From a virus (lineage: Duplodnaviria > Caudoviricetes): DNA of 63,202 nt. Of the stretch, positions 857-60,672 are shown one piece after another. Under the pieces are notes generated by a model. It was not told the origin of the DNA, searched no databases, and saw nothing but the letters and a program-made list of their open reading frames with translations. The translations under genes and the position numbers were made by a program. Numbering within the stretch: position 1 is the stretch's first letter; every line of letters starts with the position of its first letter. Location of the stretch: positions 1-63,202 of IMG/VR virus record IMGVR_UViG_3300010222_000004. One strand, 5' to 3'.

Positions 857-3800
857 ACGTCCTTGACCGTCTCCGGGCGACCCACGACGAAGAGCGGTCG
901 GGATACGAGGCGGCCCGGGTGTCCGAGAGCCTCGCCGATCACCTCGCCGGCACCGTCGATCGCAACGCCGTCACCGTTCGGCCGGACAAGGACAACGGCG
1001 GGATTGAGGCGATGGACGAAGTGCTGGAGGCACTGCATACGGTTGAGACGACGTCGCCGGCGCTCCGCAGCGAGACGCAGAACGTCAGCCCTGCCCACGC
1101 CTTCGAGATGCGGTACGCCGCGCCCGATCCGGCGAGCGAGCGCGTGGTAACGCTCCAGTACGTCCCCGGATCGGACGGCCTGGCCGGGACGCTCCGCCGC
1201 CAACTCCAAGGCCAGTATCCGGACTCACACGTCGACACGACGACTGCCGACCTGCTCCCCGCGGTGGGGCCCCGCGCCGATCGGGACAGGGACGGCGATT
1301 CCGAGCGGTACGTCGCTGGCGCGACCCTCACGCTTCGGCGCTACACGCTCTACCCGATCAAGAACGTCGACCTCCCAGGGTTCCGGTCGGATCCGACCGG
1401 GAGCGTCCTAGAGGAAATGGTCGGCGCGCAGGAGGACGCCGACACGGGCGCCGACGTCGCGGTGCAAATCATGTTCAAGCCCGCGCGGCGGACGTGGACG
1501 CAGGGCGTCCCGGAGGGCCACGGGACCGCCGACGCCGGCGACGAGCGGATCACCGGCGCGCCGGGAATTAGGGACCTGTCGTACAACCTGACCCAACCGA
1601 CCTACGAAAAGAGTCCGCTCCCGGCAGGGACGATCCCCGGCCTCGGGTGGATTCCGAAGGTCGGCTACGAGGTCCTTGAGCAACCGCCGACGAAGGTCGA
1701 CAAACAGGTGGCGACGCTCCTCGAGGAGCAACAGGGCGAGAAGGGCTGGCGGCTCTGCCTGCGCGTGCTCGCCGTCAGCGCCGATCCCGAGGTGGCGGTC
1801 GACCGCGCGGCGAAGACGGCCGGGATGTTCCGGAATTTCTACGAAAGCAACACGGAACAGACGTTCGTCCCGGAGCCGCTCACCGGCGACGCCTTAGCGG
1901 ACGCCGTCGAGCGCGCCGGCCGCCGCGAGTTCCACGAGCAGGGGATCGTCAAAGCCCAGCGCGAGGTAGCGGGACTCGTGAACGTGCCGGCGGCCGAGCA
2001 CGTCACCACGAACAAGCTCCGGTGGTCGATGTCGAAGCCCGGCGAGGGGATCCCGCCGGGGACCCCGCGGTTCGATTTTGACGGCCACGGCGTGCCGGCG
2101 GACGCCAGCACAGAGGAGCGCCAGGTAGCACTGCTTGACGCGGCCGAGGCCGAAGCGCCGTACTGGTACGGGATCGGCGCGCGCCACGGCATCGAGGCGG
2201 GGATCGACGTGGCCGGGATCACGAACCCACACAAGTTTGTTCACGGGGAGTCCGGGACGGGGAAAACGACCTTCTTGGCCGGCGATATTGCCCAAGATCT
2301 CGCCCGTCCCGGCGGCGGGCTCCGGCTGGATCCGACCGGCGACGACGTCGACGACTGGCTCGCGGAGTGGCCCGCCGATCGTCCCGCCGAGGATCTGATT
2401 TACATGGACTTGAGCGGTGACTTCGACCGGATCCCGCGGTTCAACTTCTTGGAGATCCCCGACTACTTGGAGCCCGGCACCCGAGAGTTCGTGGAGTTTC
2501 TAGAAGCGCTGGCCGAGGACATTCTGGAGATGGTCGGGGTCGCCGGCGGATCGGATAACTACGTTGGGGGGCTGATGAAACGGATCGTGAAGACCGTCGT
2601 TCGGGCGATGGGGAAGTTCGATGAGCCCGCCACGCTGTACGACGTCGCCGTCGTCTCGTCCGCCTCGGAGAACCTGGAGCGGCTGGCCAACCGCCTGAGC
2701 GCCGAGCGATACGAGGAACTAACCCACCTCCGCGACCGGATCCAGCAGCTCGCCGAGCACGAAGATAAGAACCTCGACGCTCTCGCCGGCCGCCTAGATG
2801 AGTGGGTCCTGAACGATAACGTCCGAGAACTGATATGCGCCCGGGACCCCACGTTCAGCGTACAGGACGCGGTCGAACAGGGCACGGAGATTTTCGTCCG
2901 GTTCAGCGACTCCGGAAGCGATACGGTGAAACACATGATCGGGAACGCACTCATCACCCGGACGTACTTCGCGCAGCGGCACCACCGGCCGGACGCGCCG
3001 TTCAGTCTGACGGTGGACGAGGCACAGTCGATCATCACCTCGGCCAGTGACATTGAGACGATTATGGATCAGGGGCGGAAGTTCAACTATCGCGTGACGG
3101 TCGCTTGTCAGCGCCCGGCCTCGCAGCTCCCCGACGGCGTCCGGGAGGCGATTCTGGGCAACGCCCGGACGGTGATCTCTTACGCCGCGGGGCGGACGGC
3201 CGAGGCGAAGGCGGTGGTTGACCAACACGACGGGATCGACGCCAGCGACCTCGTCAATCTCGGCCCGTTCACGTTCTACGTGTCAACCGAAGACGCCGAC
3301 CGGAACCCGACCCACTCGTACAAGGTCAACGCCTTTCGCGCCCCGTCATCGGCGCGGGAGATGATCGGGGACCCGGCCCCAACGGACACGGAGGCGCTGA
3401 AGGAGCGCTCCTTGGAGACGTACGGCGTGACTGCGGCGGCCGTGGACGACGGCCGGAGTATCCTCGACGAGCCGCTCCCCGGGGCCGATCCCGGAGCGGG
3501 CGTCTCCGAGGAGCTGACCGTCACCGACGCCGTCGAACGCGCAGTCGTGCAAGGCGTCTACGACACTGCCTGCCGGGCGGGCGACCCGTCGGGGAGCGTC
3601 CCGCTCGGCGACTGTCGCGCGGCGATCATTCGTCGCGTGGCGCGGCTTGATGCGACGCCCGACCGGGCAACGCTCGACGACGACCTCGCAGCCGACGGCG
3701 ACCTGTGGCGCCAGCTCATCCAGCACGTCCCCGACGATCTCCTCGAGATCCGAGAGCGCGACGGGGCGCCGGCACTCCGGGCGACGTCGCCGCGGGCGAC

Positions 3801-4860
3801 GCTCGCGACCGTCGGCGGCGATCAGAGCGCCGGCGGCGCGGGCCACGGCCTGCTCATGTGGGCCGCCTACGCGCCGCTGACGTGGGCCGGCCTTGACGTC
3901 GAGATCCTCGACGCGAGTGGCGACGACCCCGACGCGCTCGTCCGCCCCGCGCCCCCCGCGGAGCAGCACGCGCCGGCGCTCGTCAAGCGGCTGACCGGCG
4001 GCGACGTCGCGCGGCTCGAAGCCGAGCACTCGACCGGACGGAGCAAGCCCGGCATGACCGCCCAGCACGTCCTCCAGGCGGCGACCGAGGGCCGGCAGGC
4101 CGTCGTCCTCGCCCGCCCTGGCGACGCCGCAAACGTCGCCGACACGCTTCGCGCAGCGCCCGCCTACTGTCGGTCGGATCATCCCGTCGATGGCGAGGTG
4201 CGCTACTACACCTCGCCGCGGGACGTCCGCATCGGCGGCGCAGTCATGACCCGCCCCGGCGGTCGCGCGAATGCGTGGGTCAAAGACGAGGCGACCGGCG
4301 AGGTCGTCCTTCGCGACGGGAGCGGGACCGAGTACGCCCGGTTCGAGGATGCCGGCGCGGTGTTTACCGACGCCGGTTCCTACCCACCGGAGGGCGACCG
4401 GACGGTGAAGCAGCCGATCATCCCCGAGATCATTCTTGACGAGGGGGCCGTCGACCCGCACGTCGAGATCCTCGAGGTTCCCGAGGGGGCCGACGAGCTG
4501 GCCGACCTGTCGCTCCGGATCGGGACCGACATGACGGTCTCCGCCGACGCGGTCGGGAGCGAGGATCGGGACGCCGTCGATCACTCGGCCGGGGGCGGCG
4601 AGGAGATCCCCGCGCCGGACGACCTTGACGTCCCGGCGACGGTCGCGCGGTTCTACGACCACTTCCAAGACGTGGCCGAGGCCGACGGAGGAGTATCCGT
4701 CAAGGAAGCCCAGGATCTCGCGGCCGCCAGCGGCGATCCCAAGCTTGACGTGTCGCGGCGGGCCATGCAGGACTGGCTGTCGGCCCTGGTCGACCAAGGC
4801 GCGCTCCGGAGAGAGGACGGCGACCACGCCGCCGATCCGACCACCTACCATCCCCGCTGA
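853..4860 (+). CDS. VirD4/TraD-like coupling ATPase with C-terminal putative PD-(D/E)xK-like and wHTH regions
   Basis: Walker A GESGTGKT, LDPTGD, Walker B LTVDEAQ, ACQRP; distal GH...DPDAL...LEAEHST and terminal HTH-like VSRRAMQDWLSALVDQG. Confidence 0.75.
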   Translation: MNVLDRLRATHDEERSGYEAARVSESLADHLAGTVDRNAVTVRPDKDNGGIEAMDEVLEALHTVETTSPALRSETQNVSPAHAFEMRYAAPDPASERVVTLQYVPGSDGLAGTLRRQLQGQYPDSHVDTTTADLLPAVGPRADRDRDGDSERYVAGATLTLRRYTLYPIKNVDLPGFRSDPTGSVLEEMVGAQEDADTGADVAVQIMFKPARRTWTQGVPEGHGTADAGDERITGAPGIRDLSYNLTQPTYEKSPLPAGTIPGLGWIPKVGYEVLEQPPTKVDKQVATLLEEQQGEKGWRLCLRVLAVSADPEVAVDRAAKTAGMFRNFYESNTEQTFVPEPLTGDALADAVERAGRREFHEQGIVKAQREVAGLVNVPAAEHVTTNKLRWSMSKPGEGIPPGTPRFDFDGHGVPADASTEERQVALLDAAEAEAPYWYGIGARHGIEAGIDVAGITNPHKFVHGESGTGKTTFLAGDIAQDLARPGGGLRLDPTGDDVDDWLAEWPADRPAEDLIYMDLSGDFDRIPRFNFLEIPDYLEPGTREFVEFLEALAEDILEMVGVAGGSDNYVGGLMKRIVKTVVRAMGKFDEPATLYDVAVVSSASENLERLANRLSAERYEELTHLRDRIQQLAEHEDKNLDALAGRLDEWVLNDNVRELICARDPTFSVQDAVEQGTEIFVRFSDSGSDTVKHMIGNALITRTYFAQRHHRPDAPFSLTVDEAQSIITSASDIETIMDQGRKFNYRVTVACQRPASQLPDGVREAILGNARTVISYAAGRTAEAKAVVDQHDGIDASDLVNLGPFTFYVSTEDADRNPTHSYKVNAFRAPSSAREMIGDPAPTDTEALKERSLETYGVTAAAVDDGRSILDEPLPGADPGAGVSEELTVTDAVERAVVQGVYDTACRAGDPSGSVPLGDCRAAIIRRVARLDATPDRATLDDDLAADGDLWRQLIQHVPDDLLEIRERDGAPALRATSPRATLATVGGDQSAGGAGHGLLMWAAYAPLTWAGLDVEILDASGDDPDALVRPAPPAEQHAPALVKRLTGGDVARLEAEHSTGRSKPGMTAQHVLQAATEGRQAVVLARPGDAANVADTLRAAPAYCRSDHPVDGEVRYYTSPRDVRIGGAVMTRPGGRANAWVKDEATGEVVLRDGSGTEYARFEDAGAVFTDAGSYPPEGDRTVKQPIIPEIILDEGAVDPHVEILEVPEGADELADLSLRIGTDMTVSADAVGSEDRDAVDHSAGGGEEIPAPDDLDVPATVARFYDHFQDVAEADGGVSVKEAQDLAAASGDPKLDVSRRAMQDWLSALVDQGALRREDGDHAADPTTYHPR

Positions 4861-24712: not shown

Positions 24713-26266
24713 ATGACGTCGACCTACTGGACGTCGATATCGTCAGCGACGGGCGACAACGCGACCGTTGAGTTGACGACCACGACGACGATCCCGACCG
24801 GGACGGCCATCACGGTCACGCTCTTCCAGGACGACGGGGCGAACGGCACCGACGACACTGGCACCGGGAAGACCGACGCGCTGGGCAACGCGTATGACTA
24901 CAGCGCGAGCGTCACGCTGGCGGGCGGGAGCGGCGAGACGAACTCACTCTCCAGTTTCGACGGCGACGGCAGCACGGACGACTGGTGGCTCAAGCTCGAA
25001 CTCGCGGGCGATGGGAGCGACCCCACACTGGATAGCCCGACGCTCACGTCGTACACGGTCGACACGGCCCCCGGGACGGCGGGCCAGACGGTCAGCGTCC
25101 CCACGTCACAGAGCGGGACCACTGCCAGCCCTGCGCCGACCGTCACCGCCAGCGGGACGGCGACCGTCGCCACGCCCACCGCAGCGGCCACGCCCGCGAG
25201 CCCGGCCCCAACGCTCGCCGGCACCGGCACTGCCACGGTCAGCCCCAGCGTCTCACCGGCGGCCCCGCAGGCACCCAGCCCCAGCGTCACCGCCAGTGGC
25301 GCGGCGACCGTCACCACGCCCGTCTCGACGACGAGTGCGACGACGCCCACTCCGACTGTTGCCGCCAGCGGGACGGCGACGGTGACCACGCCCGTCTCGA
25401 CGACGAGTACGACGACGCCCGCTCCGACCGTCTCCGGGGCCGGTGCGGCAAGCGTTACGACGCCGACGAGTGCGACGACGAGTGCGACGACCCCGCTTCC
25501 GACCGTCACCGGGGCTGGTGCGGCGAGCGTTACGGTGTCGCCGAGCGTCACGACGGCAACGACGCCCGCCCCCAGCGTCACGACCACCGGCGCGACCGTC
25601 AACGCTCCCGTTTCGGCCACGACCGCCATCACACCATCCCCGACCGTCTCGGGGAGTGGGGCGACGAGCGTGTCGGCACCGCCGGGCGTTACGACGACAA
25701 CGACGCCCGCTCCCAGCGTCACGACCGCCGGTACAACCGTCACCACGCCCGTCTCGACGACGAGTGCGACGGCGCCGTTCCCGGCCGTGTCCGGGACTGG
25801 CGCGGCAAGCGTTACGACGCCGCCGAGCGTCACGACGACAACGACGCCCGCTCTCAGCGTCACGACCACCGGCGCGACGGTCACCACGCCCGTCTCGACG
25901 ACGACCGCCATCACACCATCCCCGACCGTCTCGGGGAGTGGGGCGGCAAGCGTGTCGGCGCCCGTCCCCGTTGGGACGGCGAGCACCCCGGCTCCCACCG
26001 TCTCCGGCACGGGAAGTGCGACCGTCGGCTCGCCCGTCTCCGTCACGAGCGCCACGACGCCGCTGCCCACGGCGACCGGCACGGCGAGCGCGACCGTCGC
26101 GACACCGACGAGCACCACGAGTGCGGCCACGCCCACCCCGTCGCTCGCCCTCGGGAGTTTCGCCACGGTCACGCGCACTGCTGCTCGAACCCTCGCGTGG
26201 GGTGCGTCGGTACAGCGCACCCTGGGCTGGGACGTGACCGTCTCGCGGACGCTCTCTCTTGATTAA
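24713..26266 (+). CDS. Thr/Ser/Pro-rich repetitive fibre/adhesin
   Basis: About 23-aa repeats TVxTPVSTTxATTPxPTVxGxG; 141-nt higher-order period. Confidence 0.75.
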   Translation: MTSTYWTSISSATGDNATVELTTTTTIPTGTAITVTLFQDDGANGTDDTGTGKTDALGNAYDYSASVTLAGGSGETNSLSSFDGDGSTDDWWLKLELAGDGSDPTLDSPTLTSYTVDTAPGTAGQTVSVPTSQSGTTASPAPTVTASGTATVATPTAAATPASPAPTLAGTGTATVSPSVSPAAPQAPSPSVTASGAATVTTPVSTTSATTPTPTVAASGTATVTTPVSTTSTTTPAPTVSGAGAASVTTPTSATTSATTPLPTVTGAGAASVTVSPSVTTATTPAPSVTTTGATVNAPVSATTAITPSPTVSGSGATSVSAPPGVTTTTTPAPSVTTAGTTVTTPVSTTSATAPFPAVSGTGAASVTTPPSVTTTTTPALSVTTTGATVTTPVSTTTAITPSPTVSGSGAASVSAPVPVGTASTPAPTVSGTGSATVGSPVSVTSATTPLPTATGTASATVATPTSTTSAATPTPSLALGSFATVTRTAARTLAWGASVQRTLGWDVTVSRTLSLD

Positions 26267-28645: not shown

Positions 28646-29161
28646 ATGACCGACGACATCTGTGGCGAACCGGCCGATGGCGGCGGTCTCTGCCAACTTG
28701 CGGCAGGATGGGGCCGTGATGAAGACGATGGTCCGTGCAAATACCACGCCGACACGCGACCGGTTCCGCCGAAGCTCACCGAACAACGCATCGCGAGTAT
28801 GGAGGCAGATCTTCTCAAAGGCCACTCGGTCCGTGCCGCGTGTGGAAGCAACGACATTTCAAGGGATACGCATTACCGCTGGCTTCGGCTAGCAAACGAG
28901 CTACCCGACGATGAGACATCCGAGCGGGCCGAGCTGCTATCTGACTATTCTGACAGGGTTACGCACGCGCGCGACGCTGGCGATCACTACCTGGAAAAGC
29001 ATATCGTCGACATTGCGATTGAGAACGGCGACGCCGCAACGTTACTTCGATACTTGCAGGAACGGCGGGGCGGGGAGGCAAGCCAAGAGTCCGAGGACAT
29101 GGGTCCACTTGCCCTCATCCCAAGCGACGAGCAGATCGCGGAGATGATTGCCAATGAGTAG
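28646..29161 (+). CDS. Terminase small subunit
   Basis: Directly upstream of TerL; Zn-knuckle plus HTH (GHSVRAAC...ISRDTHYRWL). Confidence 0.75.
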   Translation: MTDDICGEPADGGGLCQLAAGWGRDEDDGPCKYHADTRPVPPKLTEQRIASMEADLLKGHSVRAACGSNDISRDTHYRWLRLANELPDDETSERAELLSDYSDRVTHARDAGDHYLEKHIVDIAIENGDAATLLRYLQERRGGEASQESEDMGPLALIPSDEQIAEMIANE

Positions 29162-30353
29162 TGCGACTTCCCAGGCCGACGGGGCGCTCGCCCCGTACCA
29201 TGAGCAACTCCCGTTTCTTCGCTCGGACCGGCGATACTATGCGTTTGTGTCCGGCATCGGGGCCGGCAAGACGGTCGCCGGTATCTTGCGGATGCTTAAA
29301 AATGTCGACGAGTGGAACGCTGGCGAAACTGGCTTCGTTGTCGCTCCAACCGTCCCCTCGCTCCGGACGACGATTATCCCCGAGCTAGAAAAGTGGGGCA
29401 TCATCGATCGGTGTGAGTTCAACCGAACCGAAAAGCGGCTTGACTTCCCCAATGGTTCGACCGTCTTTCTAGACTCGGCCGATAACGACCGGAAGATCGA
29501 ACGGTTACGCGGCCCGTCGATCTCGTGGTTCTGGATCGATGAGGCGGCGACCGTCAACAAGCGGGCGTGGGACATTCTCATCGGCCGGCTTCGTGAGGGA
29601 CAATACCGGAATGCGTTCATCACCACGACGCCGAAGGGCAAGAACTGGGTGTACGACCGGTTTGTGGACGGCGATCCGGACGATGTCCGCGCCATAACGG
29701 GCGTCGCCTCGCACGAAAACGTCCACCTGCCCAATGACTATCAGTCGATTACGGACGAATACGGCGGGCGGTTCCACGATCAAGAAGTCAAGGGCCGCTT
29801 CGTTGCGTTTTCCGGCCTCGTCTACCCGTGGTTTGGCGAAGATCACCTCGTCGCCCCGGTCGACCCAACCGAAACGCGGTGGGACGAGACGATTTACGGC
29901 GTCGACTGGGGGCACAACAACCCGAGTGCGATCCTCGCGTGGATTCGCCAGGGTGAGACGTGGACGGCCGTCGAGGAGTACTACGAGACCCGCCGGACCG
30001 TCAACGACCACGCCCGCGCCCTCGCGGACATGCAGGAGCGCTGGGGGCCGGGGCGGGTCTACTGCGACCCTGCCGAGCCGGCGAACATCGAGCAGTTCCA
30101 GCGCGATGGCCTGAACGCCGTCGCTGCCGAGAACGATGTCACGCCGGGGATTCAGCACGTCTCGGCCCAACGCGACCGCCTCCGAGTCGCTGAGACGTGC
30201 CAGAACCTCCGCAATGAGTTTTCACAGTACCAATACAAGGACGACGACTCGGATACGCCCGACAAAGTCAACGACCATCTGATGGATAGTGTACGCTACG
30301 CGCTCTTTTCGCACGCGAATCGGGCGGGCGGCGGCTTCCTTATTTCCCAGTAA
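29154..30353 (+). CDS. terL: Terminase large subunit
   Basis: GIGAGKT, WIDEAA, TTTPKG, YGVDWG, DHLMDSVRY. Confidence 0.95.
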   Translation: MSSATSQADGALAPYHEQLPFLRSDRRYYAFVSGIGAGKTVAGILRMLKNVDEWNAGETGFVVAPTVPSLRTTIIPELEKWGIIDRCEFNRTEKRLDFPNGSTVFLDSADNDRKIERLRGPSISWFWIDEAATVNKRAWDILIGRLREGQYRNAFITTTPKGKNWVYDRFVDGDPDDVRAITGVASHENVHLPNDYQSITDEYGGRFHDQEVKGRFVAFSGLVYPWFGEDHLVAPVDPTETRWDETIYGVDWGHNNPSAILAWIRQGETWTAVEEYYETRRTVNDHARALADMQERWGPGRVYCDPAEPANIEQFQRDGLNAVAAENDVTPGIQHVSAQRDRLRVAETCQNLRNEFSQYQYKDDDSDTPDKVNDHLMDSVRYALFSHANRAGGGFLISQ

Positions 30354-30359
30354 CATCCC

Positions 30360-31880
30360 ATGAGTCTCCTCGACAGTCTCCTCCGTCGCACAGACGACGA
30401 CACCGAGCAACTCGCCCCGGACGACCCCAGCCCCCGCGGCGAGGACCGCGACGGCGGCTTTCTCGTCAGCCTCGTTAGTGGTGGCCGGTCCACCACCGGT
30501 GTCGACGCCATCGCCACGGACACGGCCCACCCGCCGGCCGGCATGAAGCGAGCCCACGAGGACTATTTCTATCACCCGCTGGTCACTGCCAGCTACAATC
30601 TCTTCGCCGAGACGGTCCTCGAGCCGGGCTACCGGATCACTGCTACCATCGACGGCGGGACTGACGAGGAGATGCAAGAGGCACTGCGCCTGTGGGCGAG
30701 CAACGCCGCGATTCACGCGGGGATGGTCAACCAAGACCTCGGCGTCATCCTCGAGGATGTCGTCACACTCCGGCCGAGCTACGGGACGCAGTTCATGGAG
30801 GTCGTTGGGACCGAGAGCGATCCACAGGCCGCTGCGGCGCTGATGCTCCACAATCCCGCGACGTTCAAGCAACTCCACCGCGAGGACCAAGCGATCCTCG
30901 TCCAGCCGGACGACGACGTCGCGCGCGACCATCCCACGACGCCCAGCGGCGAGGCGGCGGCCTATGTGCAGTATGCCGATTCGCTGTCGGGCTACCGAGA
31001 CCAGGACGCGATCCCGTTCGCACAGTCCGACCTCGTCAAGTTCGTCCACGACGCGCCGCCGGGGGCGCTGTGGGGGCGGGCCATCTACGAGTCAATCGGC
31101 GACCATATCGACAGCCTGCGCGAGAAGTTCAACGACCGGCATTTCGCCATCCGGCAGACGGGCTATCCCCACCGAATCTATTCCTCCGAGACATGGACGA
31201 AAGATGAGGCGAAAGACTACGCCGACGCGCACAAGAGCGGGGAGGAGGTCTCGGCGGGTCCGTACACCGATGAGGACTATCAGGAGAGTTTCGCCGGCCG
31301 CGTCGACTTCGTCCCCGAGAACGTCGAAGTCCAGACGGTCACGGGTGACGTGCCGGACATCTCGGACGCCATTCGGGACGACATTGAGCACATCTTCGCG
31401 GTCCTCCCGCTCGCCAAACTCAAAATCGCCTACGAGGAGGACATCAACCAGTTCGTCGCCGAGCCCCAGATGGAGAAGGACTCGCTGCTCATCGAGGACG
31501 AGCGGCAGTACCTCCGGCGCAAGTTCGAGCCGATCGTTGAGCGCAAGGCCAACGAACTGGCGGGCGGGGACTACGACGGCGAAATTCGCTTTGCCATCGA
31601 GGCCTCTCCGGAGACCAACCCGCTCCAGCGCGAGGACTTCCCCGCCGAGAACTTCTCGACGGCGGCGACGGCCATCAACGACCTGTATGCGGCGGGCGCA
31701 CCGCCGGAGTTGATCGCCATGCTCCTCTCGAACGCGGGCGTCGATCTCGAAGCAGCGCGCGAGGAGTTCGGCTTCACGCCCGACGACCTCGCCAGTCTCG
31801 ATGTCCCCGAGGACAGCGAGGCCGGCCAGGCGCAACGGGAGGCCATTGAGACTGCGCCTGACGTCGAGGACGCGGACTGA
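30360..31880 (+). CDS. Portal protein
   Basis: About 500 aa directly after TerL. Confidence 0.8.
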   Translation: MSLLDSLLRRTDDDTEQLAPDDPSPRGEDRDGGFLVSLVSGGRSTTGVDAIATDTAHPPAGMKRAHEDYFYHPLVTASYNLFAETVLEPGYRITATIDGGTDEEMQEALRLWASNAAIHAGMVNQDLGVILEDVVTLRPSYGTQFMEVVGTESDPQAAAALMLHNPATFKQLHREDQAILVQPDDDVARDHPTTPSGEAAAYVQYADSLSGYRDQDAIPFAQSDLVKFVHDAPPGALWGRAIYESIGDHIDSLREKFNDRHFAIRQTGYPHRIYSSETWTKDEAKDYADAHKSGEEVSAGPYTDEDYQESFAGRVDFVPENVEVQTVTGDVPDISDAIRDDIEHIFAVLPLAKLKIAYEEDINQFVAEPQMEKDSLLIEDERQYLRRKFEPIVERKANELAGGDYDGEIRFAIEASPETNPLQREDFPAENFSTAATAINDLYAAGAPPELIAMLLSNAGVDLEAAREEFGFTPDDLASLDVPEDSEAGQAQREAIETAPDVEDAD

Positions 31881-31895
31881 CTTCTCCCACGTTTC

Positions 31896-32789
31896 ATGCC
31901 GAAGTTCAAGGGCGGCCCGGCGGATATGGCGACCCGGCAACTCGAATACGCTCGGGCGCTGCGGGCGCCGTATATCGCCATCCGAGCGGAGCTGCGCCGC
32001 GGCATCGTCGACCGGGGCATCTTCGACGGCGTCGTCGGCGCACAGTCCGACGGCCCGTCGGGCGCGGTCTCCGAGCAACTCGCGCCCTCCTTCGACCCGG
32101 ATGACCTCACACCGGATGACTTCCGGTTCGACGACCCGGCCGGCGCCGACGAGCGGTTCATGGACTGGCTCCGGCGCCAGCAAACGCGGGGCGTCCTTGA
32201 GACGATCAGCCGGGGCGACAACATCTACATCCGGCGGGCGCTGTCGGATGGCGACCGCTTCGCGCTTGCCCGGCTCCGCGAGAACAACATCTCGGTCCAG
32301 GGCAACGCCCTCCCGGCAGAGGCCTTCCGGATCCGGACGGCCGGCTCGCAGGCCGCCTATGCCGCGATGGAGTTCAACCGGCCGCTGCCGGCGTCGACGG
32401 TGAAGCTCCTGTTCGATCGCAATTTCGACCAGCTCGAAAAAATCACGACCGACACGGCGGGGCAGATCAACCGCGTCCTCTCGGAGGGCCTCATTGCCGG
32501 GCAGAACCCCCGCGACATCGCCGCTGACATCGCCGACCGCATCGACGCGGTCAGCTACGATCGGGCGACGACAATGGCCCGGCACGAAATTCTCTACGCG
32601 CACAACGAGAGCGCGAAAGCACGCTACCGCCAGCAGGGCGTCGCCCGCGTGAAGGTCCTCGGGACGTCGCCCTGCGATATTTGCGACCCGTATGTCGGCA
32701 ACGAGTACCTACTCACCGATCTCCCGGAGGGCGGCCCTCCCTTCCATCCAAACTGTGTGGGATCGATAGCTCCAGCATTGGGGAGATAG
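31896..32789 (+). CDS. Minor head morphogenesis protein (Mu gpF / SPP1 gp7-like)
   Basis: RATTMARHE...CDIC...PPFHPNC. Confidence 0.88.
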   Translation: MPKFKGGPADMATRQLEYARALRAPYIAIRAELRRGIVDRGIFDGVVGAQSDGPSGAVSEQLAPSFDPDDLTPDDFRFDDPAGADERFMDWLRRQQTRGVLETISRGDNIYIRRALSDGDRFALARLRENNISVQGNALPAEAFRIRTAGSQAAYAAMEFNRPLPASTVKLLFDRNFDQLEKITTDTAGQINRVLSEGLIAGQNPRDIAADIADRIDAVSYDRATTMARHEILYAHNESAKARYRQQGVARVKVLGTSPCDICDPYVGNEYLLTDLPEGGPPFHPNCVGSIAPALGR

Positions 32790-32823
32790 AAGGCCTTATG
32801 GTTGTGTATGCACTATCTACCCT

Positions 32824-33639
32824 ATGCCTTCGGAAGCGGAGTTGGAGTTCATCAGGGAGAATCACTTCTGCCTCTCAAACGAAGAATTGGCCGAAGAGTT
32901 AGACGTGGCCCATAGCACAATCTCGCGCTGGAAACGCAGCCATCTTGACTTGCCCCGGGCTTGCGAAAAGAACCGCGTCGAATACGAATACGGCGATTCC
33001 ATTTGTGAGATTTTGGACAGGCTCCACAATGAGGAGTTAATGACCACGTATGAGATGGCCGACGAATTGGGCGTGGCCCGGAAGTCAATCGAACGGTGGT
33101 GGGAAGACTGCCCTGGTGTGAAAAAGCGAAGCCAGTCCGAGGCCACGGAATTGGCCTATAGTCAAATGTCCGAAGAGGAGCGCATGAAGCAAGTGAAGGC
33201 AGCGCATGAAACTCTCCGAGAGAATTATGCGAATGGGGAAGGCACGCTCCAAAAATGGCACCGAGATAACCCCGAACGGGCAAAGCAGCAGGCCCGCGAA
33301 GCCGCGGCGCTCGGTACTCCTGCCCGTGAGCAAAACGGGATGGAGGGCGTCACGGGCCAAGACCACCACGGCTGGACCGGCGGAAAGTCGCTGTATGACG
33401 CTCTCAAGAAACAGCTTCCGGGGCGGTCGTGGTACTCTATCCGGGAGACTGAGCGTGCCGATCAGTGCTACAAATGCGGATGTTCCGACGGCCGCTTGAG
33501 TATCCACCACATCGTCCCCGTAATGGCCGGTGGAACGAACGGGGAATACAACCGAATGACGCTTTGTGAGGAGTGTCACGGCGTTGTCGAGGCGTTCACT
33601 TGGGACGTCTTCGCTGACCCCGTCTACGACGTTTCGTAG
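32824..33639 (+). CDS. Free-standing HNH endonuclease with N-terminal HTH repeats
   Basis: CYKC...HHIVPVMAGGTNGEYNRMTLCEECH; more AT-rich than flanks. Confidence 0.88.
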   Translation: MPSEAELEFIRENHFCLSNEELAEELDVAHSTISRWKRSHLDLPRACEKNRVEYEYGDSICEILDRLHNEELMTTYEMADELGVARKSIERWWEDCPGVKKRSQSEATELAYSQMSEEERMKQVKAAHETLRENYANGEGTLQKWHRDNPERAKQQAREAAALGTPAREQNGMEGVTGQDHHGWTGGKSLYDALKKQLPGRSWYSIRETERADQCYKCGCSDGRLSIHHIVPVMAGGTNGEYNRMTLCEECHGVVEAFTWDVFADPVYDVS

Positions 33640-33642
33640 CGC

Positions 33643-33685
33643 TCCAAACTGTGTGGGGTCGCTAGCCCCAGTCGTTCCCTCCTAA
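33643..33685 (+). pseudogene. Orphan second copy of the minor-head gene 3' end (PNCVGSLAPVVPS*)
   Basis: 33643-33671 is 26/29 identical to 32747-32775. Confidence 0.85.
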
Positions 33686-33697
33686 CCCGAGATTACC

Positions 33698-34033
33698 ATG
33701 CCACCGATCATTGACATCGACACGACACTCGACGCCAGCGGCGGCAGCAACGACACCGTCACCCGGGCCTACCAGATCCACAACGACAGCGGGCTCTTGC
33801 ACGTCGTTCTGCGCGGCGCATCAACCAGCGCCGACGTGTACGTGGAAACCCGTGGCGCCGAGGACATGGACTGGGCCGACTACCTCAGCCCGACAACGGG
33901 CGCCGACCCGTCGTCGGAGTACGTGGACGTGACGGGGGTCGACCTCGCGGACGTCCCCGAACTCCGCCTCCGAATCGTCAATCAAGACGGCACGAACACG
34001 GCCGACGTCCGGGCCGTCGTGCGGATGGACTGA
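33698..34033 (+). CDS. Hypothetical head-module protein
   Basis: Acidic beta-rich ORF. Confidence 0.65.
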   Translation: MPPIIDIDTTLDASGGSNDTVTRAYQIHNDSGLLHVVLRGASTSADVYVETRGAEDMDWADYLSPTTGADPSSEYVDVTGVDLADVPELRLRIVNQDGTNTADVRAVVRMD

Positions 34034-34046
34034 CACAGGAACACTC

Positions 34047-35405
34047 ATGAATACATCTCTCTACGAGCAACTCTCGCATGGTGGGGCGGCCACCGTTGGC
34101 GCTGCTGCCGATACCCCGCCGACCGTCCGGATCGTCCCGATCGCCGAAGGCGAGATCACGGAAGGCCAGTCCGGCGAGCGGGCCGTGTTCGGCCAGGATG
34201 CCCTCCGGCAGGCGGCCGAGTCGGGCGCCCTCGACGGTGCGACCATCGTCAAAGGCGAGGGCGGAGAAAACCCACATTTCCCGATGGACGAGCAGGTTCC
34301 GCCGGAGCACGTCCTCGGCCGGGTCGACTCGTGGACGTACGAGGCGGGCGTCGGCCCCGTCGGCACGGCACAGCTCGCCGACGGGGAGATGGCCCGCCGG
34401 ATCGACCTGGACTTACTCGACGTGAGCGCCGATCTACTCCGGCGGCTGGGCGACTACGACGAAACTGCCGATGCCCGCCGGGTCGACGAGATCGTCGCCA
34501 TGCCCCGGATCACGGTGCTCGAGCAGGGCGCCGCGCCGGGCGCATCGATCGAGACGGCCGACGCGGAGGCGCTGGCCGCCTCCGATGCCGGGCAGTTCCT
34601 TCTTGCGGACAGCGCCGCCGACGGCGACGCCGACCAGCACAGTCCTTCTGACGAGGGGGCGGAATCCTCCGCAGACGACCGCGACACCGACACAACGGAC
34701 AACTCAACACACATGTCAGACGAGGACGACGTGACGAAGGCCGAACTCCGCGAGCAGCTCGCGGCAGCGAAGGCCGAACTCGAACAGACTGAACAGGAAC
34801 TCGAACAGACGGAGGAGAACCTCAAAGCCGAGCGCGAAGAGGCCGAAGCACTTGAGGAGGATCTTGAGGAGACTGAAGCGGAACTCGAGAAAACCGAAGC
34901 GGAACTTGAGGAGAAAGACGAGCAGGTAGACGGCTTCAATCAGGCCCTCGCCCACCGCCTCGCCGGGGATGACGACCGCTTCGACCCCGACGAACTGGCC
35001 GAGCGCTACTCCACCCAGGAACTCGCCGACAAGGTCGTTCAGAGTGAGGACCTCGCCGACGACGAGGAGCGCACGGCCGACGATTTCGACCCCGTTGCGG
35101 CCGTCCAAGATCACCTCGCCGCGTCGCCGGCCCACCGCGGTACGCCCACCGGCGAGCCCGGCGACGGTGGCGGCGGGAGTGCTGGCGGCCAGCCCACCGA
35201 GGAGCAACTCGCGGCCGCCAACGATTGGGCCTACGAGGCGCTCACCGGCGACGACATCGTGCAAGCCAGCGGCGAGGAGCAACTGTCGCCGCGCGAACTC
35301 GCCGCGGAGAAGACGGGCGTCGACCCGGCGACGTGTGACTCGCGCCAGGAGTTCCTCCGCAAGCTGAACAGCGACGCTGCCAGCGGCACGGGGGGTGAGG
35401 CCTGA
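34047..35405 (+). CDS. Prohead protease-scaffold protein
   Basis: Position before capsid genes; globular N-terminus then long acidic coiled coil. Confidence 0.75.
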   Translation: MNTSLYEQLSHGGAATVGAAADTPPTVRIVPIAEGEITEGQSGERAVFGQDALRQAAESGALDGATIVKGEGGENPHFPMDEQVPPEHVLGRVDSWTYEAGVGPVGTAQLADGEMARRIDLDLLDVSADLLRRLGDYDETADARRVDEIVAMPRITVLEQGAAPGASIETADAEALAASDAGQFLLADSAADGDADQHSPSDEGAESSADDRDTDTTDNSTHMSDEDDVTKAELREQLAAAKAELEQTEQELEQTEENLKAEREEAEALEEDLEETEAELEKTEAELEEKDEQVDGFNQALAHRLAGDDDRFDPDELAERYSTQELADKVVQSEDLADDEERTADDFDPVAAVQDHLAASPAHRGTPTGEPGDGGGGSAGGQPTEEQLAAANDWAYEALTGDDIVQASGEEQLSPRELAAEKTGVDPATCDSRQEFLRKLNSDAASGTGGEA

Positions 35406-38628: not shown

Positions 38629-38642
38629 GCCGTCCCACAATA

Positions 38643-38805
38643 ATGGATATCAACATCGACTGGAAGACGGGTAAGTCACCCCGAGCGTTCGCCGGCAAGA
38701 TGGCGGCGTTCAAGCGCCGCCTTGACGACGAACTTGAGGCAGCAATGCAGGACGCGGTCACGTGGGTCGAAGCCGACGCGAAAGAGCGCGCGTCGGTAGA
38801 GAACC
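38643..38805 (+). pseudogene. Truncated 5' copy of HK97 gp10-like gene
   Basis: MDINIDWKTGKSP...ELEAAMQDAVTWVEADAKERA parallels N-terminus of 39539-39931; 24-nt exact match. Confidence 0.85.
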
Positions 38806-38868
38806 CTTGCCTTGGCAACTGTCCAATGGTAACACAAGAACTAACCGTCCCGGTACCATGGCAAATCC

Positions 38869-39504
38869 ATGGAGAAGGCGTACGAAGACCGAGAAACGCT
38901 CCGGCGGCTATACCATAGGGAACAAATGACGATGTCTGAGATGGCGGAGGAGTTGGAGTGTAGCCACACGACCATCCACAAGTACATGGACAAACACGGC
39001 ATCCAAACACGAAGCTCGGCCGAGTCCCGAGAACTCCGCGGTACAGGGACAAACGGGTGGGGCGGTGGTCCTCATCGAGACCCCGAATGGCTCCGCACTC
39101 GGTATCGGGATGAAAAATTGTCCATCGCCGAAATGGCCGATGAAGCCGGTGTTTCGGAGGCGACCATCATTCGTCAGATGGAACGGCACGGAATCGATCG
39201 GCGCCCAGGGCACGTCACCCACGTCCTCCGCAACCCCGGCGCGGGCTTCGTTCAAGCGGATGCAAGAGGGTACGAAATGGTCAAGCATTCCGTGGGAGAC
39301 CATACGTACAACTATCCCATTCACCGGCTCTTGGCGATTGCCAAATACGGCTATGATGCCGTAGAGGGTGCTGTCGTACATCACCGAAATTCTGTCAAAT
39401 GGGACAATCGTCCTGCGAACCTCGAACTCCTTGAGAGCCAATCTAAACACGCAAAGCACCATGACACTTCCCGGCAACGCGACGACCGCGGGCGGTTTGA
39501 GTAG
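38869..39504 (+). CDS. Free-standing HNH endonuclease (HNH_3/I-HmuI-like) with two HTH repeats
   Basis: IHRLLA...VVHHRNSVKWDNRPANLELL...HAKHH. Confidence 0.9.
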   Translation: MEKAYEDRETLRRLYHREQMTMSEMAEELECSHTTIHKYMDKHGIQTRSSAESRELRGTGTNGWGGGPHRDPEWLRTRYRDEKLSIAEMADEAGVSEATIIRQMERHGIDRRPGHVTHVLRNPGAGFVQADARGYEMVKHSVGDHTYNYPIHRLLAIAKYGYDAVEGAVVHHRNSVKWDNRPANLELLESQSKHAKHHDTSRQRDDRGRFE

Positions 39505-39538
39505 CCTGCCGGCCTTCCCCCCCCACCTAGGCCCACTA

Positions 39539-39931
39539 ATGGTTGACATCAATGTCGACATTGAGTGGAAACGTGGCCGGTCGCCGAAGTCGATGATCGC
39601 CCGCCTTGGGGCGTTCGAAAAACGCCTCGACAAAGAACTTGAGGCAGCAATGCAGGACTCGGTACAGTGGGTCGAACGAGATGCGAAGGGACGTGCACCC
39701 ACGGACACCGGGGCTCTGCGAGCATCTCTGGCAGGCATGGTCAAGCCGACGGTGGACGACGCCGTCAAAGGCTATGTTGGGTCGAACTTAGACTATTCAA
39801 AATTCCAAGAATTCGGCACGTCGAAGATGGGGGCCCAGCCCTACCTTCGGCCAGCAATCGAAGCGAACCGCGACCGGATCAAAGAACGGTTTGAGCAAGC
39901 CGTCCACGACGCGGCCCGCGGCCTGTTCTGA
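39539..39931 (+). CDS. HK97 gp10-like tail completion protein
   Basis: APTDTGALRASL...EFGTSKMGAQPYLRPA. Confidence 0.9.
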   Translation: MVDINVDIEWKRGRSPKSMIARLGAFEKRLDKELEAAMQDSVQWVERDAKGRAPTDTGALRASLAGMVKPTVDDAVKGYVGSNLDYSKFQEFGTSKMGAQPYLRPAIEANRDRIKERFEQAVHDAARGLF

Positions 39932-58512: not shown

Positions 58513-58860
58513 CTCGTGTGTACTCCGATATACGAAACTGAAACTATGAACCAGAACCCCGACACACAGAACGAGCGCGGAGAACAGCCGAGCGAGACTG
58601 AGCGATTGAAGCACTGGCAGGAGTGCGAGATCCCTGGTTGGTTCAATGATGTCCCGAAGGCGAAGGGAATTTGTGATCGCCATGCCGGAGCAGGGTCGGT
58701 GTGACGCTGATGGGCATCTGCAGCCTGTGCGCTGATGAAAAGCCAATCCATGTTCCCCACGAACGACGGCGGTTGACTCGTGGTCCGGACGGGGACAAGC
58801 TCTGTGCTCGTCACGCCAAAGAAGTGTGGGACGACCACGAGGTAGACACGGATACCGACC

Positions 58861-60529: not shown

Positions 60530-60672
60530 TCAGAGAGAACGGGGTTGCAACGGCGCTATCCCGCGAAGGCGAAGAGAATTTGTGATCGCCATGCCAGAGG
60601 AGGGTCGGTATGACGACACCGTGTATGAATCGTATGAAAAGTATTAAGTGGTTGGGTGCATATGGTGTATAT

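Follow-up and report, generated by a model that had tools for sequence, protein, structure and literature searches.

A free-standing HNH endonuclease gene at the 3' end of a minor head gene in a haloarchaeal tailed virus: a probable case of homing by gene-end replacement

The stretch of DNA analysed here, called the window throughout, comprises positions 1 to 63,202 of the IMG/VR record IMGVR_UViG_3300010222_000004. It belongs to a haloarchaeal tailed virus, whose major capsid protein is 51% identical to its counterpart in Halobacterium phage ChaoS9. At the 3' end of its minor head (head morphogenesis) gene of the Mu F/SPP1 gp7 type, hereafter the Mu F gene, lies a free-standing gene for an HNH endonuclease, with one version of the Mu F gene end before it and another behind it. 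We consider it probable that this arrangement represents a homing endonuclease cassette inserted at the invariant His-Pro-x-Cys codons of the Mu F gene. The mobile unit would consist of an in-frame foreign substitute for the last 13 codons and the stop, a short spacer holding a TATA-like box, and finally the gene for the nuclease, while the native last codons would have been displaced downstream, where they form an untranslated orphan still adjacent to the next gene. An initial annotation, made from the letters alone, had proposed a nuclease within the gene end, a substitute terminus upstream and the displaced terminus downstream; this proposal agrees with an HNH-free relative whose gene ends like the orphan (PVVPS and stop), with the same layout at a locus from another sample (L039/L005), and with five further orphan-bearing loci.

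The Mu F gene (31896-32789; this and the features that follow it here lie on the plus strand) encodes 297 amino acids. Its C-terminus reads HPNCVGSIAPALGR or, in a longer view, GGPPFHPNCVGSIAPALGR, and is closed by a TAG stop at 32787-32789. A 34-nt spacer (32790-32823) separates it from the HNH gene (32824-33639, 271 aa, stop TAG at 33637-33639). The junction CGC (33640-33642) lies between the HNH stop and the orphan terminus (33641-33685), which reads APNCVGSLAPVVPS up to its own stop and is joined to no gene; the ATG of the next gene (33698) follows 12 nt past that stop. Both termini share a direct repeat. Copy 1 (32747-32775), within the functional terminus, reads (H)PNCVGSIAP and is followed by ALGR and the stop; copy 2 (33643-33671) lies within the orphan, and the two are identical at 26 of 29 bases. 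Because copy 1 begins at the last base of the invariant His284 codon, the insertion falls in the most conserved codons of the gene. The orphan starts 2-4 nt past the HNH stop in a frame different from that of the HNH gene, and its only in-frame candidate starts after the nearest upstream stop, GTG at 33566 and TTG at 33584, are both inside the HNH gene. The coordinates and letters given in the initial annotation proved exact, as did its account of a 26/29 second copy three nucleotides past the HNH stop.

The similarity between the Mu F end and the orphan exceeds chance. When the 170 nt around the gene end were aligned with the 163 nt past the HNH stop, the local alignment scored 43 (z 13), whereas the best of 200 shuffles scored 22. 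At the protein level, none of 1043 background windows from the surrounding 16 kb reached the score of the orphan. The pair 32747-32775/33643-33671 was also listed by a separate repeat search of the window.

The family assignments made in the initial annotation were confirmed by Pfam for both genes. The minor head gene matches Phage_Mu_F (PF04233) with an E value of 4.8e-8 and 34.2 bits (cut-off 29.6), and this membership fits the gene order, in which a large terminase gene is followed by a 506-aa open reading frame (ORF) at the portal position and then by Mu F. Annotated equivalents exist in ChaoS9, Hardycor1, HJTV-4 and HATV-3. In a family alignment of 15 proteins the residues C260, C263, G280, P282, H284, P285 and C287 are invariant, and the consensus end is GGPPFHPxCVGxxxPAxx. 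The Mu F reading frame of the window passes through 32747-32789 to the stop, so that this segment serves as an in-phase substitute terminus, and the resulting protein retains all seven invariant residues.

What the gene may have looked like before insertion can be read from L001, a viral contig that lacks the HNH gene and is 94-96% identical to the window in both flanks; it is the one close relative on which this comparison of native termini rests. By blastn, window positions 31895-32643 align to L001 3000-3748, and the alignment resumes at window position 33668, corresponding to L001 3877; 1024 bp of the window (32644-33667) take the place of 128 bp. From 33668 on, the window is collinear with L001 (96% over 3 kb), beginning with the codons for VVPS, the stop and the 12 nt that lead up to the next ATG. 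The Mu F gene of L001 likewise has 297 codons and ends in GGLPQHPRCVCCYSPVVPS and a stop, followed by CCCGAGATTACC and ATG exactly as after the orphan. Since the orphan shares with L001 the gene end (PVVPS), the stop and the next gene, it appears to be the in-frame remainder of an end that once adjoined the next gene, though it matches L001 only in part. The inserted tail, ending in ALGR, is unlike the end of L001, and the retained orphan keeps the native upstream context of the next gene. The initial annotation had delimited 939 bp; relative to L001 the stretch replaced is larger and spans 32644-33667. We also considered that L001 might itself be a deletion derivative, formed by recombination between the two copies. 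This would predict the terminus HPNCVGS(I/L)APVVPS, and L001 instead has HPRCVCCYSPVVPS before its stop, so that the idea was rejected.

No HNH-free variant was found among contigs at 80% likeness from one DNA sequencing run, the probable source of the contig. That run, the only one listed as holding the DNA (no RNA run was among those listed), yielded one contig identical over the whole stretch and otherwise only short unrelated pieces, a result that does not bear on expression or on polymorphism in the population; a joint of 31652 to 34130 found there had a 24-nt side and came from an unrelated 9378-nt contig. A DNA search with 31500-34500 against a collection of cultured phages returned no match.

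The boundary with L001 differs on the two sides of the HNH gene. Upstream, the blastn break at 32643/32644 marks off a 3' tract of the Mu F gene (32644-32789, plus strand) for which L001 has no DNA-level counterpart and which would be foreign or co-converted. Identity to L001, taken in 75-nt steps towards the HNH gene, is 99-100% over 32271-32420 and then falls to 87, 77, 73, 48 and 38%, the last two values belonging to the 3' tract itself; downstream of the HNH gene the change is abrupt. The foreign tract thus extends about 100-370 nt further upstream than the repeat. At the protein level, residues 1-249 of Mu F are 90% identical to the L001 protein and residues 250-297 only 36%, while this same tail is 70% identical to those of two more distant relatives (P0003 and P0005). 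The Mu F gene is therefore a hybrid of a native body and a tail from elsewhere. Base composition follows the same division: G+C at third codon positions (GC3) is 0.88 both in the Mu F body and in the next gene, but 0.68 in 32644-32745, 0.50 in 32746-32789 and 0.69 in the HNH gene. Overall G+C drops from 0.65-0.72 to 0.52-0.58 across 32700-33700 and is 0.57 in the HNH gene as against 0.65-0.68 in its flanks, values that point to a foreign origin of the nuclease gene.

The HNH protein has the parts that a homing enzyme would need. Pfam places PF01844 at residues 215-252 (E 7.6e-7) and finds helix-turn-helix (HTH) families in the N-terminal part. The zinc-type HNH motif at the C-terminus is complete, its residues C215, C218, H228, H229, N239, C248, C251 and H252 being invariant across an alignment of 18 relatives, and the profile matches HNH domains in solved chains of McrA, IscB and a group II intron maturase. 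The DNA-binding part comprises two HTH stretches (residues ~17-38 and 73-93). Since an internal 44-nt repeat, 70% identical between its copies (32888-32931 and 33056-33099), encodes both HTH modules, the DNA-binding part has been duplicated. Some relatives carry a zinc-finger-like N-terminus in place of the HTH.

The spacer before the HNH gene holds TTATGG (32796-32801), 28 nt before the HNH ATG, in agreement with the promoter-like box reported in the initial annotation. The related string GGC(C)TTA(A/T)G occurs just past the Mu F stop in 5 of 17 distinct loci (the window, L004, L005, L007 and L051). In four of these the called HNH start lies 28-30 nt further on; in L007 the ATG that the string precedes is internal. 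TTATGG is thus a candidate archaeal TATA-like box, from which a leaderless HNH transcript might start. By the standards of haloarchaeal promoters, this conserved spacing would fit such a box for a leaderless transcript.

The window is not an isolated case. A scan of viral contigs with the single HNH protein gave no match, whereas scans with the alignment of 18 relatives found 19 viral, 21 metagenome and 4 genome loci. A Mu F gene stands directly before the HNH relative in the window, in 11 of the 19 viral loci and in 6 of the 21 metagenome loci, or 18 of 45 loci; none of the four relatives in haloarchaeal genome contigs adjoins a Mu F gene. The 18 Mu F-adjacent loci tested represent 17 distinct ones, L052 repeating L009 in its orphan as well as in its ORF sizes and scores. 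Orphan tails of Mu F turned up in 7 of these 17, all at the invariant His-Pro-x-Cys codons, so that the duplicated termini described in the initial annotation extend to other HNH genes. Each orphan begins between 2 nt before the HNH stop and 10 nt past it. Its alignment opens somewhere between about one codon ahead of the invariant His and three codons beyond, and it continues to a stop codon, with a length of 10 to 32 codons. Their scores were reached by no background window in L005 (0/416), L009 (0/418), L052 (0/351) and L011 (0/271). A single background window did so in L007 (1/414) and in L008 (1/420); the evidence is weaker for L006 (15/426), which has the same orphan peptide as L011. The Mu F proteins of the orphan-bearing loci are mostly 31-45% identical to each other (L006/L011 64%).

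The clearest second case is L039/L005, in which the Mu F protein is 33-38% and the HNH protein 51% identical to that of the window. There, too, the Mu F gene is completed by an in-phase inserted terminus, ending in VHARCRCTFLPVVGNTKQLTLNASKQRVKA and a stop; two bases past the HNH stop, which is again followed by CGC, comes ARCRCSWLPVVSDTKQLTLNASATDVARTAA with its stop and then the next ATG. The in-frame orphan (ARCRCSWLPVVSDTKQLTLNAS onwards) aligns with the functional end (HARCRCTFLPVVGNTKQLTLNAS onwards) at z 17, and GC3 is 0.45 in the upstream copy and 0.66 in the orphan. The combination of HNH stop codon and CGC recurs in L005, L009, L014, L016 and L032.

Most differences between the copies in the orphan-bearing loci are synonymous. 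In L007, for example, orphan and functional end agree at 10 of 11 residues and at 20 of 28 bases. As the peptides agree while the DNA often differs, the copies have separate histories, unlike the products of a target-site duplication. The recoded terminus proposed in the initial annotation is accordingly strong in L007, L008 and L005 and weak in the window, where only 3 of 29 bases differ (two synonymous changes and one Ile/Leu). Very short or eroded remnants may follow the HNH gene in L051 (ILPVVE and stop) and in L014, L015, L058 and L004 (a conserved stretch with IR and stop, or HPMTPAGAE). A candidate orphan in L032, GPTFSGGCGC against GPPFHPRCRC, is weak, its score being reached by 9 of 296 background windows.

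Several comparisons indicate that the nuclease moves independently of its host gene. Similarity of the two genes is discordant across pairs of loci: L051 and L058 share 86% identity in Mu F and 48% in HNH, L011 and L013 38% and 74%, and L006 and L051 54% and 85%, as would be expected if the nuclease were mobile. In a profile search that recovered 29 Mu F loci, the HNH gene lay behind the Mu F gene in three, in front of it in one, and was missing from 25. Presence/absence polymorphism at one site in close relatives and occupation of the same codons in distant hosts were thus both found. L013 and L016, related viruses with ~75% DNA identity, carry HNH relatives at different sites (2599-3680 and 2362-3295, respectively), the former after the Mu F gene and the latter between the portal-like and Mu F genes. 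Each provides the empty allele of the other, with 8 and 19 bp at the empty sites.

Stacked and decayed forms were also observed. L004 has two different HNH genes in tandem behind one Mu F gene (2932-3744 and 3665-4693); its second nuclease contains four repeats of an HTH module (EPKYRDEEWLREQYV) before the HNH motif. L033, L030 and L034 are 99.7% identical to L032 in their flanks and lack 592 bp inside the nuclease gene (L032 2575-3166), of which they retain ~36 nt at the beginning and 60 nt at the other end; these are decayed copies. The DNA after their remnant holds GGATCCAGGTTCGACTCCTGG, which resembles a tRNA T-arm. In L012 the HNH relative lies behind a portal-like gene (864 aa, open at the start of the locus) and is followed by the Mu F gene. 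Here the last seven codons and stop of the portal-like gene (EGWRQGG) are repeated right past the HNH stop (2571-2596 and 3291-3315; 0 of 393 background windows reached the score). L012 thus represents the same trick at another gene.

These features suggest how the element might spread. In a mixed infection the nuclease, if expressed and active, would cut or nick an HNH-free allele near the H-P-x-C codons. Repair from an HNH-carrying genome would use the gene body as the left arm and the native tail, paired with the orphan, as the right arm, and would copy in the substitute tail, the promoter and the nuclease together with co-converted flanks of variable extent, long upstream and short downstream. 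The host gene would stay whole without an intron or intein, and recombination between the direct copies would remove the element cleanly. Immunity of the resident copy is the weakest point of this scheme: as the functional copy in the window hardly differs from the orphan across 29 nt, protection would have to come from the few bases that do differ or from the site's upstream half.

Other observations also weigh against the cassette as we picture it, and some of them would suit an ordinary intergenic homing endonuclease of the T4 seg/mob type. Such an enzyme would cut elsewhere in or near the Mu F gene, the substitute tail would be a co-conversion tract, and the orphan would be a by-product of one imprecise repair. 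According to the accessible text of a review on T4 homing (PMC2988022), free-standing T4 enzymes cut hundreds to thousands of base pairs from their own genes, so that the point of insertion need not mark the cut site. Towards the HNH gene the window departs from L001 by degrees, over ~370 nt, as in co-conversion. The functional copy in the window nearly rebuilds the presumed target, and recoding hardly explains immunity at that locus. No orphan could be detected in 10 of the 18 loci tested (L004, L010, L013, L014, L017, L051, L053, L054, L056 and L058); the relatives in L013 and L016 are clean, plainly intergenic inserts, and those in L012, L016 and L040 precede the Mu F gene. Over its first 27 nt the orphan agrees with the copy within the element (26/29) and with L001 at only ~10 of 30 positions, so that the orphan is not simply the old end of the resident lineage, and part of it may have travelled with the cassette. 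The tail of L001 is itself a family outlier, with 28-60% identity to the others, and tails therefore seem to have been exchanged repeatedly. Nevertheless, we regard an intergenic element of this kind as unlikely. In seven distinct loci the orphan aligns to the same H-P-x-C codons and starts between 2 nt ahead of the HNH stop and 10 nt past it, and an isolated accident would not strike one codon again and again; moreover, the duplicated piece always ends exactly at the stop codon, and the gene is kept whole.

Homing endonucleases commonly reside in introns and inteins, and the frame of the downstream copy could continue the gene past the His codon, as if a group I or group II intron, an archaeal bulge-helix-bulge intron or an intein were removed to join the gene body to that copy. 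This reading is scarcely credible. Between 32000 and 34500 no Rfam family matched at E < 1; the four matches at E 3-10 were to small RNAs, a CRISPR repeat and a flavivirus element, and none to an intron. An inverted-repeat search found none that pairs the two junctions. An intein is excluded by the family-typical tail with its TAG at 32787-32789, the 34-nt spacer and the separate HNH ATG, and splicing would leave the upstream copy without any purpose. The initial annotation, which had dispensed with splicing, is thus supported in this respect. Equally hard to believe is that the duplication is an assembly artefact, in which two strain variants were joined, or the target-site duplication of a transposon. 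The window is indeed a metagenome-assembled contig, and the sole run that holds it is its probable source, yet assemblies of several further samples show this layout too. The repeats, 10 to 32 codons long, diverged and always ending at the stop, are not the fixed-length exact copies of a target-site duplication, and we rejected this reading together with those of an intron and an intein.

A further possibility is that the HNH protein is not selfish and has been domesticated for packaging or head assembly. HNH proteins work with terminase in the packaging of HK97-like cos phages, and the HNH gene here always lies within the terminase-portal-Mu F module. We nonetheless consider such a role very unlikely because close relatives lack the gene or have a broken copy: it is absent from the otherwise 94-96% identical L001 and internally deleted in L033, L030 and L034. 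Its absence from 25 of 29 Mu F loci, its foreign base composition and its variable DNA-binding modules (HTH or zinc finger, as in homing enzymes) likewise speak against it.

Replacement of a gene end by a homing element has precedents, and the one named in the initial annotation, in fungal mitochondria, is real. These are the mORF 'gene hybrids' of Allomyces macrogynus (atp6), Glomus sp. (atp6, atp9, cox2 and nad3), Rhizopus oryzae (atp9) as well as Mortierella verticillata (cox2), as described in the accessible text of PMC3630166. In both systems the endonuclease ORF lies in the 3' part of a gene, which receives a foreign C-terminus in phase, and the native C-terminus is displaced, by ~1 kb in the mORF hybrids as in the window; the mechanism proposed for mORF homing, double-strand break repair, is also the one proposed here. 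In the hybrids, as in the loci described here, most differences between the copies are synonymous; the native copy of the hybrids resembles that of element-free relatives. In the window, by contrast, the native copy matches the element-free relative only over the last codons. The host also differs, being an archaeal tailed virus rather than a mitochondrion, and so does the nuclease, which is HNH instead of LAGLIDADG or GIY-YIG. Furthermore, the nuclease of the window stands as a gene apart, with a start and a promoter-like box of its own, unlike the mORFs fused in phase, and its target is a structural gene for head morphogenesis, unlike those of the mORFs (PMC3630166).

WHO elements, which occur at FBA1 in Torulaspora and Lachancea yeasts (Coughlan et al. 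2020, PMC7282813), resemble the window element in homing without intron or intein and in replacing the 3' end of the target gene with each integration. As far as the accessible text of that paper goes, their clusters were built by repeated homing, to which the tandem nuclease genes of L004 look comparable. The WHO nuclease is intein-derived, combines LAGLIDADG with a zinc finger and resides in a nuclear eukaryotic genome; its cleavage has been demonstrated experimentally (PMC7282813), whereas that by the window enzyme is predicted. By analogy, the window element appears to be a further case of this known, gene-end-replacing kind of homing.

In T4-like phages, the free-standing genes seg (GIY-YIG) and mob (HNH) are likewise known for intronless homing (PMC2988022). 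These share with the window a free-standing nuclease, a tailed-virus host, sporadic distribution and co-conversion of flanks, and the T4 enzymes of the HNH type have a separate DNA-binding region, as does the window HNH. The T4 elements are, however, intergenic or split genes (mobE in nrdA, mobA in gene 60) and cut far from their insertion, whereas the Mu F gene of the window stays in one piece by means of the spare end; the word stem 'duplicat' is absent from the accessible text of the review (PMC2988022). A limited full-text literature search, mostly without subscription journals, found no description of this layout in phages or archaeal viruses.

Among cultured haloarchaeal viruses, the Halorubrum virus HATV-3 (NC_062757.1; L078 1436-3312) has an HNH gene directly behind a Mu F-type gene, its HNH protein being 44% identical over residues 176-258. 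The record annotates the two without comment as gp13 'head morphogenesis' and gp14 'HNH endonuclease'. Unlike in the window, the Mu F tail is longer and the insertion falls at its extreme end. A remnant of 3-4 codons is possible (FSGG after the HNH gene against LSGG and stop at the gene end), but is not significant.

The HNH gene is embedded in an ordinary head module. The large terminase gene (TerL, 29148-30353) and the 506-aa ORF at the portal position (30360-31880), which has no Pfam match, precede the Mu F gene; a 111-aa virion-module gene (33698-34033, plus strand), also without a Pfam match, follows the orphan and is succeeded by a scaffold-like gene and the capsid gene. Further along, the window carries a second cassette: 38629-39624 comprises 996 bp where the contig of L001 has 79 bp and contains an HNH_3 gene with HTH (38869-39504, PF13392). 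On either side of it, the 5' part of an HK97 gp10-like gene is present in copies of 87 nt that are 77% identical (38705-38791 and 39610-39696, PF04883) and cover the first ~45 codons of that gene. The first copy stands at the native position and breaks off after ~50 codons; the second heads a complete gp10-like gene (39539-39931). This cassette is the mirror image of the Mu F case, with replacement of a gene start.

Two other repeats were noted elsewhere in the window. Positions 25135-26140 hold an array of 72-nt and 141-nt direct repeats, with up to eight copies that are 61-93% identical to the reference copy; rich in ACG and GCC codons, it probably encodes a repetitive protein region of the Thr/Pro/Ala type. 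A 52-nt direct repeat (58655-58706 and 60564-60615; 92% identical, 1909 nt apart) spans an apparent gene start (GATCGCCATGCC).

In conclusion, our analysis suggests that, by bringing a spare gene end, a selfish nuclease of an archaeal virus can enter an essential virion gene at its best conserved codons and needs neither intron nor intein to do so. What makes the case notable is its recurrence across a family at one conserved motif, together with a natural series of states before, after and in decay: L001 before insertion, the window, L039 and others after it, L004 stacked and L033 decayed, with HATV-3 as an entry point in culture. This series makes the cut site, the immunity of the resident copy and biased inheritance directly testable. 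Gene-end replacement would explain short unattached gene-end fragments, gene tails whose phylogeny is discordant, and low-GC islands in the head module, and the enzymes are candidate site-specific nucleases working in high salt. We give about even chances to a broader view, in which, throughout the haloarchaeal tailed viruses, a dedicated clade of HNH enzymes has specialised on the C-x-x-C ... H-P-x-C (zinc-knuckle-like) codons of the Mu F tail and spreads as a cassette of three parts (spare tail, archaeal promoter box and nuclease), with a sister group aimed at the end of the portal-like gene. It would then be the first family-wide instance of splicing-free, gene-end-replacing homing in archaeal viruses and would still be active, with the orphans as a fossil record of earlier hosts and the repeats as a route to clean loss. 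If this is true, the HNH clade is the cause of the mosaic tails of the essential Mu F gene.

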